64,000 nucleotides of DNA from Paecilomyces variotii (GCA_004022145.1 RCNU01000003.1); one strand, 5' to 3'; shown: positions 57,742 to 64,000, numbered from the stretch's first letter. The notes: generated by a model not told the origin, from the letters alone. Numbers and translations are program-made.

Positions 57742-58615
57742 ATTCCTTCGAGACGGGGATAAAGCTATATTTGTTAATAATGATGTGATAGAAAAAGTGC
57801 ATAATTTAACCCTGTGGCATATATGGGATAATGAGATACTGAGATTGGTGGATCGTATTTACTTGAACGATCGTTTTCTGATCCTTGTCAGACTATGAAT
57901 TACTTTATCATGAAGTGATGCAGTAGATTGATCAGGTCACTCATTTCATTCATTTGCGTGTCGGTACATCGTTCCTGAGCACTAGAGCGTGCTGAGCTGC
58001 ATACTACTACTGTTGTAACTATTAACTAATGTAGTTAACTAACTTGACATCAAGTATGAACTTATGTCAGCACCTTTTCAAATCTGCGGGGAAAAGCTTG
58101 CCCTTCCCTGCAGCGCTCATCGCCTATCCGAAACGTCGGGTCTGCAGGGTCTGAGGGACAATGCATATTCTGGGATCGGGAGGACAACTGACTGCCGTTG
58201 GGTATCGATACTGGGTACAATTCCAATTGGTTGATTTTTGAAATCCTAAGGTTATATTGGAGAGTATATATACTCATAGCAGTAGTAAGTATTACTTTGG
58301 TATCTAGAGTACCATAGTTAGGTACAGATTCTGGGTGGGTCTCCATTATTGGTATGTTAGTGCATGTAGAGTCAAGGTATAGTGAACTATTATTACTACT
58401 TCATGAATAGCAGAGTAATCAACCTCGCAGCCCCAATTACCTACTCTATAGCCAGCGTTTCGAAAACCAACAGTAGTTATTAATATTGTTTACACTGTGC
58501 CATATCCTATGGCCGCAATACCTGCCAGGGTCCTTCTGATCTGAGGGTTACATGCAGCTGCACACAATACGAACGACTGAATTGTGTGCCTTATCCCAGA
58601 GAACATGCTAAGATA

Positions 58616-58815
58616 CAGTACTACGGCAAAAGTTTTCGACACTACAAAAAATTAACTACATAATATTTTTATTTTTAACAGCACCCACAACATAGATATA
58701 CTTAAAATAAAATAAAGAAATAAATATTTATTATCTTAATATTTATAAAAAAAATATAATAAAAATTATTTATATAAGTTCTTATATATTTTTTATACTT
58801 TAAAATATACTACTT
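58616..58815. mobile_element. End of a RIP-mutated Tc1/mariner-like DNA transposon, interrupted by the LTR element
   Basis: TA followed by CAGTACTACGGCAAAAGTTTTCGACACT at the point where AT-richness begins, resembling Tc1-type TIR starts (CAGT..AAAAG). Confidence 0.55.
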
Positions 58816-59172
58816 TGTAAAGAGCTAGGGTGAAGAAGCTCTTTATCAGAGGTGACTAGTCGGACTAGTTAAACAGAATGTGAGATAAGAGGTAGAGACG
58901 CAGGCGAGTAGCCGTCTACGCATAATAGAGTTAAAGATTAGATTTAGTAATAATTAAAATAAATTACTAATCCCTCTAACTTTTATTCTTTTAGGGGTTA
59001 TTTATTTATCTGTCTATTTTACTAGGTTATCTAGATAACTTAATCTTAACAGCTCTATCTATAACTAGCTGATCTAACTATTATATATAAATCTAGTTAT
59101 CTCATTATCCTTTATTATCTATCCTAGGTCTTAGCAGGTCTAGATTAAGTATTGTAGCCCTAGTTCGTGATA
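58816..59172 (-). repeat. 3' LTR (about 357 bp) of the gypsy element
   Basis: Termini are imperfect inverted repeats TGTAAAGAGCTAGGG / (TA)TCACGAACTAGGG, with TG changed to TA by RIP. On the minus strand it is preceded by a G7 polypurine tract at about 59177-59183. Confidence 0.8.
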
Positions 59173-59584
59173 ATATCCCCCCCTATTAAAAGGCTTATCC
59201 TGAGCTATATAAAATTTATTATATAGGTTTAAATATTTAGGCATAGCTATAGTAATAGTAGTAAGTTGCTGTTAAGGCATGCTTATTATATGAATTTATT
59301 TAATATTGGCTTTATTTTAATATTTTTATTTAGGAGATTAAGAGTATTTATATTTTTTGCTAATTAACTCCTGTCCTTCTGCCTGTATATTAAGCTATTT
59401 TTTTCTTATTTCTACAGCTTATTTAGTGCTGCTTTTAATAGTTTAAATATAGAAATAATTAATAGTTATATAGGTATATTAAAAATAGGATTTTTGAGTT
59501 ATTTTTTTATAGGTCCTATATATGCGCTTAATATAAGTTATAACTCTTTAGATTTATATAATAATGCTAATTAATATAATAATA

Positions 59585-60900
59585 CCTCTTAAGCGCTTTA
59601 AGCATATTTTATTTATTTTAGACTCTTTTAATAAGACCTTTATAGCTAGCCTTAAGCTATTATAGCTGCTAATTAAAGATTATCTATTTAATTATTAGCT
59701 TAATATAGATAATAAGTAGCTTAATAAACTATTTCTCCCTCTTATATCTCTAACTGCTAATATAATATTAGAACTAATAACTCCTTTTTTATAAATTATT
59801 TTATTTACCGCCATTAATAATAATAGTAGAGTATCTCTGCTAGAGTTATCTATAAAGAACCCCTTAGTAAAGGAGTATCTTCTATCTAAGATATATAGGG
59901 GTTAGTTTATATCTGGCAATATAGTTCTTCTTATATATAAGGAGATATAGGCTAGTCTATTGCATTCTCTTTAGAAATTAAAATATAATTATAATAATAC
60001 TACTCTTATTATACTTATAATAAAAGAAATTTTTATTTAGCTAGCTAAAAAACTATAAAAGAGGTTAAAAATAAAGAAGGTCCCTAATATAGAGACTTAA
60101 AGAATTTAAGATATTATTATAACTCTTATTCCTAGAGTTAAAGCTGCTATTAAAATATCTCCTCCTTAGATTAATTTAGCTCTCTCTAAGATAATAATAT
60201 TAATTATTATTATTAATACTAATATAGTAATAAATTATCCTGCTGTTTTTAAGACAGATTTTATTATAAATCCTTTTAGCTTAAAGGGTTTAATTAAAGA
60301 CTTTCCTCCTATTTTACAGGAGATATGTCTTTATTATTTAAAGGCCTTAATATAAGATCTAAAGTAATAGTATATCTGTCTTTATATTAATATAAAGTGT
60401 CTTTATTATAAGGGCCTTTATAAGCTATATATCCTTATACTGCTAATATATAAGGCCAAGTTAACTTATATTTAGAGTCTTAGCTAAGAGGCTTATCTCT
60501 TAGATAATTTAAAGTCTTTTAATAAGGCTATAAATATATATATTTCTTCTATAAAAGCATATATATAAAAATCTATATTTAAGACTATTAGACACTAGCT
60601 CAGTACTGCTATTATCTTACTAATCTTATTATATTTTAAATTAGAGTTATTATATCTCCTTTAAGAGTTATATTAAATAATTTATTTATTAAACTGCAAT
60701 ATCTTATATATAATAAATATATTTATCTAATTATAGGGACTATCTCTATTCTCTAATAAGGAGAAGGAAGATATTATTAAAAGATTTTATAATAATAAAA
60801 TAGCTGAGTAGGATAATTTTATAGGCCTATATTTAGATTATTAGCTAGGGCTAGCCTAATTAAATTAAATTATTCCTATTAAGATTTCTTTCTTTTATAT
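59585..60900 (+). pseudogene. RIP-degraded extra ORF antisense to pol inside the retrotransposon
   Basis: One continuous codon-like frame (e.g. CCT GCT GTT TTT AAG ACA GAT; AAG GAG AAG GAA GAT). By eye, its stops are only TAA/TAG, which RIP would produce from Gln/Trp codons. Confidence 0.6.
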
Positions 60901-63900
60901 CTTTTTTAAAACTCTTAAACCTTGTAAGAAAATTAAAAAAAGAGTAATATATATAGTAATATATTTAATAATAATTAAAAAACTTAATAAGAGAAAAAAT
61001 ATTATTATTTATTTGTCTTGCTTTACTTTCTAGTTCTTAGCTTCCTTTTATCTTACTTTTATTTAAGCAGCTTACTTATATTAAAAACTTTGCTGGGGTT
61101 TTTGCTATAATATTCTTCTAAAGCTTTAATTATATATATAAGATCTTCTAATATTTATTATAAGTTTTTATATAAAAGATATCTTTTTTATTTTATTAAG
61201 AACTATTTTTTTTATAAAATATTTATTTGCTAAGGATTTCTTTTACCTCTTATTTTTATTCTTTATTAATAAGAACTAGATCTAGCTGTTTAAGTTCTAT
61301 CTCTTCTTATTAATTATAGGGTTCTAGCAGGGATATATAGAATATTAGATATATTCTGCCTAGACTCTTTAGCAGTTATAATTAGTATATTTGCTTTTTA
61401 ATTATCTCTATTACTTTATAGGATCTAGAAAATTAATAGTTTAACTTCTTATTTAATTAATTAATTTATAGATTCTTTATTAATAAAAAAACTTAATCCC
61501 CTATCTTATATAATTTAGGTATATGTTTCTTATTATAATACTTCGCTTACACCTTAATAATATATTATAAGTGCTTCTCTAACTTTACCCTAATATCTAA
61601 TAATTTTTTAAGTTATTTCTTAATAGCAGGAATATTTAATCTTATTCTTATATTATATTTATCCTAGCTATTAGGATTAAAGCTATAAAGGGCCTTAAAT
61701 AGTAAGTATTTAATAGTAGAATGCTTTATATTATTATAAGTATACTCTGCCGTATTTAATAATAACGCCTAGTTATCTTAATAATAATTTATATATACTC
61801 TTAGATAATACTCTAAGGTTTAATTCTAGTGCTCTATTTGCCTATCTGTTTATAGATAAAAAATAATACTTATTAATTAAGTAATTTATATATACTAATA
61901 AAGCTTAGTCTAATATTTATTAGTAAATACTAATCTCTAATTAGAAATAATTAATATTAGGGGATTAAACTAGTAATATATCCCTTTTATAATTAGGTCA
62001 GCTAAGTCTTCTACTATAATTATTTCTTAGATTAAGATATATAGAGCTATCTTAAAGTATTAGTCTATAACTACTAATATTATATTATATTTAACTCTCT
62101 ATTAAGTTAATAATAGTAGGCTAATAATAAAGTTTATTAATATATTCTGTTAGGGTCTTTTTACTATAGATAGTAAGCTTAACTGCTTATATAGCTTATA
62201 TTTAAGAACTCTATTCCTTTTATAAATATTATAGGTCTTTATATATTCCTATATATTATTTTATATACCTAGCTAGTAGAATTTTTACTTAAATAGTTTT
62301 TTTATAGTTTTAACTTCTTAATAGCTAATATATAGATTATTATAATAAATTTGTAGTAATTCTTACTTTAGTAAATATTTATTTAGGATATAAATCTAAT
62401 CCTATCTTTATAGCAGACCCTTATTATTTATAGTCTATTTAGAGCTTCTAGATTAATTAGTCTCTAAATTACTAATCTTCTTTAGTATAAAGATATCTCT
62501 CTATTAAAGCTACCTAAGTAATTTTAGAAGATTAAGCTTCAGAGAATCCTAGATTATCTTTTTATTAATAACCTTTAATATTAATAGTCTTAGTAATAAG
62601 TATTTGCAATTACTTATACTATCTTTTTTATTTAAAGCATATAGTTTTAGTTTCTTCTATAGGGTAAGTAATAATCTAATCTCCTACTCCTTCTCTAAGA
62701 ATTTATAGTCTAATCTCTAAGATAGTATATTAGCTGTATTTAAATAATCTAGCTTATATTTAATATAAAAGTTATAGCCTGCTAGTAACTTCGCCTATCT
62801 TACCTGCCTATTATTTAAAGTCTTTATTATAAAGAAGTAGCATAGGTTTATATAGTTAGTCTATACCTAAGCAGGGTATTTATTACTATCTAAATAATAT
62901 CTCTAATACTTAAAAGCTTTAATTATTATTAATAATTCCTGGTTATATACTTTATATTAATATTTAATTTTAGTAAATTTCTTTAAAAAGTATATGACTA
63001 GGTGCTATTACCCTATTACCTTACTTATAAGCTACAGTAGAATAATAGCTAAAGTAAATCCTAAGGCATTTATAGCTATTATAATTAGCTTCTTTAAATT
63101 ATAATACTATAATATTAGCAGTTTAATAAATATAGTTTTTAAATCTTTAAATATTTTCTATACTTTAGGTATTTATTTTAATAGGCCTGTCTTCTTATTA
63201 TTCTTACTACTCTTAAGTAAGTCTATTAATAGTATTATAATAGAAAAGTAATTATAAATAAATCTCCTAAAAAAACTTATAAATCTTAGAAAGACTTAAA
63301 TATTATAAAAGGTCTTTAATATAGGCTAATTATAAATTATTTTAATCCTAGAGAAATCTATCTTAATCCTATTATATCCTATAATAAATTTAAGGAAGGA
63401 AATTTCCTTCTTATAGAATTTGTATTTACTTAGCTTTATATATAAATTATACTTACAGAGTCTTTTTAGCACTTTAGAGATATATTATTTATATTCTTTT
63501 TTATCTATTAAGAAGATTAAGATATTGTCTAAGTATATAATACAGCAGATATTTAATAGGCCCCTTAGTACTATATTAATATAGGCTTAAAATATAGCTA
63601 GAGTATTATATAGTCTAAACAATATAATAAGATATTTAAAATAGCTGTATCTAGTTCTAAATACTGTCTTTTATTTATCTCCCCTTTATATATAGATTCT
63701 ATAATAGGCTTCTTAAAGGTTAAGTTTTATAAAGAATCTTATATCTATTAATTAATCTAGTATCTTATTTATTTATAGCAGTAAATAATAATTCTTAATT
63801 ATTTAGATATTTAGTCCTTAATAATTAATATATAAGTATAGTTTATTATCTTTCTTAGGAATAAAAATAATTAATAATCTGGCTGGGCTAATTAAAGCCT

Positions 63901-64000
63901 AGATTTAACCTTATTATTATATATCTTTTAGATACCTTTATAATATATCTAGTTTTTTAGTAAAATATAAATATAGAAGCCTCTATAGCAGCAACTTATT

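Follow-up and report, generated by a model that had tools for sequence, protein, structure and literature searches.

In the relevant passages of a review of long terminal repeat (LTR) retrotransposons, few accessory genes are known and no antisense accessory gene has a known function (PMC7264820). Among fungi, the Boty-like Ty3/gypsy elements of Botrytis cinerea and Sclerotinia sclerotiorum carry an extra antisense gene, brtn (Zhao et al. 2011, cited in PMC8365987, PMC7264820, PMC4227169 and PMC5987419), which the review classes with the antisense open reading frames (ORFs; aORFs) between pol and the 3' LTR (PMC7264820), and the gag-pol of Boty-like elements is described with a CHROMO domain (PMC4227169). 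Plant aORF-3Rs, also antisense and between pol and the 3' LTR, are listed there for maize Grande1, rice RIRE2, Silene Retand and Phaseolus PvRetro13, occur in most copies of their families and are of unknown function (PMC7264820); Retand is placed in a non-chromovirus lineage (PMC11963269). For Paecilomyces variotii, AT-rich regions affected by repeat-induced point mutation (RIP) are described together with a 7,091-bp 'Tf2-type' element, Tn123 of strain CBS 144490 (contig 123, 231,587-238,677), with no antisense ORF mentioned in the part of the source that describes it (PMC6300479). Within the limited collection of fungal literature searched, no such gene was described outside Botrytis and Sclerotinia.

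The present analysis concerns a 64,000-nt stretch of P. variotii DNA (GCA_004022145.1, RCNU01000003.1), hereafter the window, and the retrotransposon at its right-hand end. Positions 58816-64000 are occupied, on the minus strand, by a RIP-inactivated member of a multi-copy family of Tf2/Ty3-gypsy LTR retrotransposons. On the evidence of protein relatives and of other copies, the element family probably carries an antisense accessory gene between pol and the 3' LTR that was killed by RIP in the window copy, a reading to which we assign a probability of roughly 0.78. The core of this gene lies tail to tail with pol, approximately 220 nt from the pol end. An accessory antisense gene in this slot had been proposed in the initial annotation, and the proposal gained support from three relatives of the plus frame and from the occurrence of the spacer in other copies. 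The arrangement as such has been described before; the present family and its protein apparently have not. The features of the spacer are as follows:

59188..61030, no strand assigned: internal spacer of about 1.85 kb, from the polypurine tract (PPT) to the estimated pol end (contig depth and bridging contigs)
60119..60811, plus strand: core of the antisense gene, 230 codons followed by a TAG at 60809-60811 (phmmer, BLASTP, tblastn and RIP-reachability)
60326..60430, plus strand: relic of a six-Cys cluster (alignment A1, with coordinates from the BLASTP register)
59576..60118, plus strand: probable N-terminal continuation of 181 codons (periodicity and composition only, without homologue)
59290..59568, plus strand: unusually open stretch in another plus frame, that of 59188, from a surviving ATG at 59290 (stop count)

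The plus frame of the spacer, with X written at stops, was searched with phmmer against 1.84 billion (1.84e9) representative proteins at E<=0.001 and yielded exactly three matches: P0003 (207 aa; E=4.9e-45), P0004 (82 aa; E=1.8e-20) and P0005 (243 aa; E=6.9e-7). P0003 (locus DTO212C5_2554) and P0005 (Plec18170_004726) are hypothetical proteins of P. variotii and P. lecythidis, respectively, and P0004 derives from a metagenome contig of 952 nt. P0005, from the other species, is diverged (39% identity to P0003 over 86% of its length) and has an open frame of 243 codons with normal composition. BLASTP of the relatives against the window frame gave E=2e-39 and 6e-17 with 53-58% positives, and tblastn of all three against the six frames of the whole 64 kb window matched the plus frame only, without frameshift (60131-60808, 60356-60595 and 60284-60562). 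Homology was limited to 60119-60808 (about 230 codons), and the C-termini of P0003 and P0005 share one alignment column with the window TAG. By these matches the plus strand, antisense to pol, is judged to hold the relic of a real gene, and its core is predicted to encode a protein of about 230-245 aa.

The long plus frame had originally been delimited as 59585-60900. The portion at 60119-60808 was recovered as a homologous protein frame, and positions 60812-60900 were found to lie outside the gene, because the last residue of the relatives falls at 60808, directly before the window stop (60809-60811). The tentative de-RIP translation offered for this frame was essentially right, as it matches P0003 (DFPPVPREI..., PPFSDEEEEDIIKGFY). 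Further searching added no members: a profile search with the relatives' alignment A2, which needs shared 5-residue words, returned, out of 4396 candidates, no member beyond the three already known; two scans of metagenome contigs (with A2, and with A3, in which P0003 stands first) gave 143 pattern matches each, with 0 confirmed; and in viral contigs 0 of 57 pattern matches were confirmed.

A RIP origin of the damage in the window copy is supported at the codon level. In the RIP-reachability test, a relative's residue was counted when any of its codons could lead to the window codon via C>T and G>A alone, with shuffled columns as control. It was passed by 204 of 207 residues of P0003 (40.7±5.8 shuffled, maximum 60), 73 of 80 of P0004 (12.5±3.2) and 115 of 165 of P0005 (30.6±4.7). 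All ten window stops aligned to P0003 fell on Gln (6), Arg (3) or Trp (1) residues. The gene is dead in the window copy: the 231 codons of the core contain 13 stops including the TAG, with 12 in-frame RIP stops before it, the Met of P0003 aligns with ATA, and Tyr stands at four of the six cluster Cys positions (TGY>TAY). P0003 is itself RIP-damaged, with three of its six Cys reading Tyr, and is probably an annotated transposon pseudogene; its gene model also skips a 23-codon segment kept in the window, P0004 and P0005.

The distribution of the spacer among other copies was verified with the contigs of four runs (other strains of the same organism; contig kind unrecorded, one marked 'DNA?'), aligned to 58500-63000 at 80% likeness. 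Spacer depth resembled pol depth in all four runs. In run X2, word depth was 570-1920 in spacer bins and 807-1952 in pol bins, compared to 78 in the leftmost flank bin, and in run X1 most listed variant sites were covered by 10-17 contigs in spacer and pol alike, and some by 1-7 (counts taken from 40 of 1562 variant sites). The pol border (61012) was bridged by contigs in X1 (record 4, 60676-61154) and X11 (record 10, 60818-61276), and the LTR border by another X11 contig (record 7, 58917-59307). Differences between copies were almost all transitions (X1: A>G 222, C>T 314, G>A 279, T>C 273; transversions 29). Since it is covered about as deeply as pol and both of its borders are bridged, the spacer belongs to the multi-copy family itself, and it occurs in most family copies. 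A separate nested insertion of foreign origin, against which the initial annotation had asked that other copies be checked, was ruled out by the similar depth and the bridging contigs in 4/4 runs.

Some variation within the family was recorded along the way. A deleted form of the element, seen in X1 and X2, joins 60408 to 62084 with a loss of 1675 nt, from the middle of the antisense gene to the integrase region, and 10 filler letters. Contig depth fell at 60161-60311 in all four runs, and a repeat at 60187-60229 was skipped in the alignment; this interval is a low-complexity ATT/ATA run that matches an Ile-rich stretch of the RIPed protein.

Could the gene be a passenger rather than a gene of the element? 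A host gene for a small Cys-cluster protein, on this view represented in the host by P0005, may have been transduced into the Paecilomyces family, which we consider unlikely. P0005 is indeed a single annotated gene (a cluster of 1 member on 1 contig) on a 734 kb contig, the protein family was confined to one genus in the searches made, and the Atlas neighbours are ordinary Ascomycota hypothetical-protein clusters. However, a single annotated copy says little, since annotation pipelines mask repeats, and the slot and orientation are the same as those of brtn and the plant aORF-3Rs, which the review regards, where it treats them, as element genes (PMC7264820).

The 5' extent of the gene was considered separately from the core. 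P0005 has 80 residues ahead of its DFPPVPR motif, which would place the start near 60050 (its N-terminus is without reliable alignment). At 59501-60118, TA dinucleotides keep the same phase as in the core (23/51/54; p=0.0011), and there are 14 stops in the 206 codons of the plus frame, 11 in the 205 of the minus partner and 25-31 in the four other frames. A position-specific base model trained on the core preferred the plus strand over 59576-60118 by 29.7 log units; in calibration, this strand test recovered the true strand in all six pol train/test pairs (+15.5 to +47.5). It is probable, at roughly even odds or better, that the plus frame extends upstream to about 59576 and comprises 412 codons or more (59576-60811). 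An internal duplication was rejected as the source of the upstream periodicity, as blastn and blastp of 59186-60030 against 60031-61012 returned short low-complexity matches only, the best (E=1.6e-5) being 36 nt long and on the opposite strand.

Nearer to the LTR, another plus frame is unusually open. The interval 59248-59556 has 1 stop in 103 codons, making it the most open of 906 windows, and one stop or none was obtained in 7 of 500 Markov simulations; a second count over this part gave 3 stops in 103 codons, compared to 9-16 in the other frames. The strand test was neutral over this open stretch (-1.5). It may be a 5' part or exon joined by a short intron, the product of an indel in this copy, or a chance feature. 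A 1-nt insertion after 59505, found in other copies, was rejected as a frame joiner, as it would connect the long frame to the worst upstream frame and not to the open one.

The initial annotation had gone further and tentatively read this region as short 5' exons near the LTR, with introns at 59261-59333, 59344-59417 and 59474-59621 and transcription driven from the 3' LTR, as for the antisense gene HBZ of human T-cell leukaemia virus type 1 (HTLV-1). All the splice motifs it named were found where it placed them, the third intron measures 148 nt (1 mod 3), which is the length needed to join the 59290-59568 frame to the long frame, and the openness of the upstream frame just described would suit an exon. 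Nevertheless, such a spliced gene is improbable. Within the 4.8 kb of RIPed sequence there are 17 GTAWRT strings on the plus strand and 7 on the minus strand, and YAG is found 192 times on the plus strand (about 190 per strand); at such frequencies the splice-like motifs are no more than expected by chance. The first two introns would remove sequence that is already open, and nearly stop-free, in one frame; the phase of the long frame begins at about 59546, inside the proposed third intron; and the Met of P0005 corresponds to about 60050, without upstream exons. Multi-exon splicing is therefore left unsupported.

The statistics of the six frames bear on whether the spacer is coding and on which strand. 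In the plus frame at 59585-60901, 27 stops were counted in 439 codons, all of them TAA or TAG, in agreement with the 25-30 estimated by eye, compared to 53-70 in four other frames and 32 in one minus frame. For the whole spacer, the plus frame had 43 stops in 609 codons and its minus partner 44 in 608, with 69-89 in the remaining four frames. The question raised at the outset, whether stop density might be equal in all six frames, has a divided answer: four frames are far higher, and one minus frame is nearly equal. In pol, the sense frame had 85 stops in 995 codons and its antisense partner 86 in 994. Stop counts cannot tell the strand, because depletion of the palindrome TA in one phase opens one frame on each strand. 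Low stop density, taken in the initial annotation as a sign of coding, accordingly stands as coding periodicity and fails as an indicator of strand. TA phase counts at 59585-60901 were 57/97/115 (chi-square p=5e-5), compared to 229/178/228 in pol, and the periodicity keeps its phase from about 59546 to about 61000. When the spacer was simulated 500 times with a first-order Markov model, the full-length frame with the fewest stops held 60.3 of them on average and never fewer than 43, the number observed.

Given this symmetry, the spacer might instead hold a third sense ORF on the minus strand, downstream of pol, with the plus-strand proteins in the databases being wrong-strand models. Besides the near-equal counts of the partner frames in the whole spacer, in its upstream part and in pol, a purine/pyrimidine (RY) codon model trained on pol favoured the minus strand by 14.2 log units. 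This RY-codon test is weak (correct strand in 13 of 16 host ORFs, with small margins) and gave the opposite answer on the spacer when trained on host genes (plus strand, +5.3), and purine content by codon position did not distinguish the strands. Coding on the minus strand is nonetheless very improbable. An open plus frame of 243 codons in un-RIPed DNA of another species is unlikely for a wrong frame, with a chance of (61/64)^243, about 1e-5, in random sequence; the plus frame shows six conserved Cys, a common end point and conservative substitutions among the relatives, and the core-trained composition model preferred the plus strand upstream by the margin given above. The minus frames were without Pfam match, the large protein libraries not having been searched with them.

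That the spacer is non-coding (3' untranslated region, degraded filler or a nested insertion), with frame and matches as artefacts, is scarcely credible and already largely refuted: no Pfam family was found in its six frames (only ATG14 at E=0.2, below the cut-off), and P0003 and P0004 come from RIP-affected members of this very family and would match whichever frame an annotator had called, but P0005 is diverged and of normal composition, the periodicity and the best-frame stop count, equal to the minimum of 500 simulations, would be unexplained, and a nested insertion is excluded by the contigs.

For the antisense gene favoured here, the properties of the product were drawn mainly from P0005. 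From N- to C-terminus, it runs from a basic region rich in Ser and Pro, through a basic cluster of six Cys and two to three long helices, to an acidic tail, and it also has a Ser/Pro-rich stretch that is acidic. The basic N-terminus contains an RGRP string that we take, by eye, to be AT-hook-like. All six Cys of P0005 (93, 96, 108, 117, 120 and 127) fall in the pattern C-x2-C-x11-C-x8-C-x2-C-x6-C, and residues 81-120 carry a net charge of +8. The P. variotii-type rows of the alignment have Cys or Tyr at every P0005 Cys column, and since Tyr is the RIP product of Cys (TGY>TAY), all six Cys are recoverable as ancestral.

The Zn(II)2Cys6 consensus is C-x2-C-x6-C-x5-12-C-x2-C-x6-8-C. The product resembles Zn_clus (PF00172, Gal4-type) proteins in having six Cys in a basic stretch followed by long helices, and its last three spacings (x8, x2, x6) fit the consensus, whereas the first loop of P0005 has 11 residues instead of 6. 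None of P0003, P0004 and P0005 had a Pfam match at E<=10, PF00172 included, and the P0005 spacing (x2, x11, x8, x2, x6) is off the consensus. Among PDB sequences, nothing was found except a designed-protein match at E=1.5. The AlphaFold2 (AF2) model built on alignment A2 had a mean predicted local distance difference test score (pLDDT) of 46 and a predicted template modelling score (pTM) of 0.32; the Cys region was below 50, and the long helices at residues 131-170 (pLDDT about 75) were the sole confidently modelled part. Atlas structure neighbours with Zn_clus had low template modelling (TM) scores of 0.22-0.44, under the threshold, and the nearest Atlas clusters consist of unnamed Ascomycota proteins (feature score 0.91), one of which may be P0005's own cluster. 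A small zinc-binding protein, nucleic-acid-binding or regulatory and serving the element, is a tentative assignment with about one chance in three.

Several points weigh against an antisense accessory gene of the element as a whole. Only three relatives were found among the 1.84e9 representatives, and the profile search added none; P0003 and P0005 come from automatic gene prediction and bear the name 'hypothetical protein', and P0003 is RIP-damaged in addition. In the upstream half, the minus partner shows slightly fewer stops than the plus frame (11/205 compared to 14/206). The functional guess comes without a Pfam match (E<=10) or a PDB match, with a mean pLDDT of 46 and with Zn_clus neighbours of low TM. 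Lastly, no intact ORF was seen inside an element, so far as the evidence goes, which consists of RIPed copies and protein relatives.

The element that hosts the gene was delimited by protein domains, composition and contig divergence:

61031..63997, minus strand: RIP-degraded pol, truncated by the window end (Pfam on P0002; 85 stops in 995 codons)
63386-63772, minus strand: reverse transcriptase (RT) domain (Pfam)
62774-63094, minus strand: RNase H domain (Pfam)
61316-61501, minus strand: integrase SH3 domain (Pfam)
59176..59187, minus strand: PPT AATAGGGGGGGA, directly upstream of the LTR, with a G7 run at 59177-59183
58816..59175, minus strand: 3' LTR of 360 bp (contig divergence points, inverted joints and sequence read)

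The last 5.2 kb of the window have a GC content of 0.21-0.24, compared to about 0.5 elsewhere, and RIP indices typical of RIP (TpA/ApT 1.32-1.40; (CpA+TpG)/(ApC+GpT) 0.33-0.55). The minus-strand frame at 60950-63997 (P0002), with stops written as X, was scanned with Pfam and matched, in order, RVT_1 (E=3e-10), RT_RNaseH (1.5e-10), RT_RNaseH_2 (7.1e-10) and SH3_Tf2-1 (8.8e-8). The minus strand therefore shows the Ty3/gypsy domain order RT - RNase H - integrase SH3, then PPT and LTR; the window ends within pol, before protease, gag and the 5' LTR are reached.

The best of 17 pol relatives, P0006 (E=4.3e-107, 30% identity, 89% of query), is itself a Ty3/gypsy pol, the domains of which are protease, RT, RNase H, integrase, SH3 and chromodomain (PF00385 Chromo, 1080-1131); rve and Integrase_H2C2 are also carried by pol relatives, and 0 of the 17 are Paecilomyces proteins. 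In P0006, Chromo starts 24 aa past SH3 and the protein ends 94 aa past SH3. Because these distances were transferred onto the window, the pol end is placed near 61030, close to the earlier estimate of about 61010; the chromodomain after which pol was said to end was not detected in the window copy, either by Pfam at E<=10 or by local alignment (score 28, compared to 23.6±4.2 for shuffles). The label 'chromovirus' would be lent to the window element solely by its relative P0006. With the pol end at this position, the spacer measures about 1.85 kb, consistent with the extra 1.8 kb noticed at first.

The LTR has TG at 58816 and TA at 59175 on the plus strand, the latter most simply explained as CA altered by RIP. 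The divergence points of contigs from other copies lie at 58816/58818 and 59165-59170, and inverted joints in X1 and X2 (58818<->61711 and 59174<->61712) fix the LTR ends within 2 nt. Word depth peaked in the LTR bins at 58802-59103. The start of PPT and LTR, first put at about 59180, was confirmed by the LTR border at 59175/59176; PPT function is inferred, having been assigned by position beside that border. The same joints reveal, in other strains, a solo LTR of the family nested upside down within the pol of another copy. The outer third of the LTR (58816-58930) has a much higher G+C content than the rest of the element, as if RIP faded toward the edge. Just outside the LTR, 58651-58815 is also AT-rich, with a contig depth 2-4 times that of the leftmost flank bin, and the element seems to have landed in or beside an older RIPed repeat.

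Taken as an accessory gene of this element, the antisense gene would be transcribed inward from a promoter in or beside the 3' LTR, and its putative zinc-binding, nucleic-acid-binding or regulatory product would serve the element. None of the listed sequence sets that contain the stretch is recorded as RNA. Base-pairing of the antisense transcript with the 3' part of the element's genomic RNA, to which it would be complementary, could yield double-stranded RNA (dsRNA). A broader joint reading is possible but rather doubtful: Eurotiales Tf2/gypsy elements would encode an antisense regulator of their own, non-homologous to brtn, possibly at least 412 codons long with an upstream exon, and this would be a non-canonical six-Cys zinc-cluster DNA-binding protein acting on the LTR or on host silencing. 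If that were true, independent origins of antisense accessory genes in the same slot would be implied for the retroelements of fungi, plants and animals, and transcription converging on pol would contribute to the production of dsRNA and small RNAs. Small RNAs could plausibly originate from sense/antisense convergent transcription across more than 1 kb of an element, and transposon small RNAs matter in Botrytis pathogenicity, as a source cited above for brtn states (PMC8365987); a link of the present element to pathogenicity would be by inference. The six-Cys basic cluster gives a testable hypothesis, zinc and DNA binding, and proteins such as P0003, annotated as 'hypothetical proteins' of the host, are probably RIP-damaged transposon genes.

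Compared with the known systems, the locus stands at different distances from each. HBZ of HTLV-1 is an antisense basic leucine zipper (bZIP) protein expressed from the 3' LTR in spliced and unspliced forms. The two share an antisense location at the 3' end of their retroelement and a small basic protein of nucleic-acid-binding type, as predicted here; the differences are that HBZ belongs to an animal retrovirus, that it is a bZIP protein without a Cys cluster, and that the 3'-LTR promoter and splicing are features of HBZ. The antisense ORFs of plants and HTLV-1, cited at first as precedents, do provide one, but the fungal brtn had been missed, and as far as the sources describe it the kind of gene is less novel than was thought. 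With the plant aORF-3Rs, as described in the review, the gene shares slot, orientation and presence in most family copies, but those belong to plant lineages, whereas fungal copies are subject to RIP.

The closest likeness is to brtn, which, in what the cited sources report, is also an antisense gene between pol and the 3' LTR of an Ascomycota Ty3/gypsy element, with a product without known function; a CHROMO domain is reported in Boty-like gag-pol and was found here in the best pol relative, P0006. No Botrytis or Sclerotinia protein was among the library or profile matches, the phmmer query being RIP-degraded and the profile search working via shared 5-residue words. The window copy differs in being RIP-dead, and the fungal class differs, Paecilomyces belonging to the Eurotiomycetes and Botrytis to the Leotiomycetes. 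A second fungal case outside the class of Botrytis would show that the antisense slot between pol and the 3' LTR has been used repeatedly.

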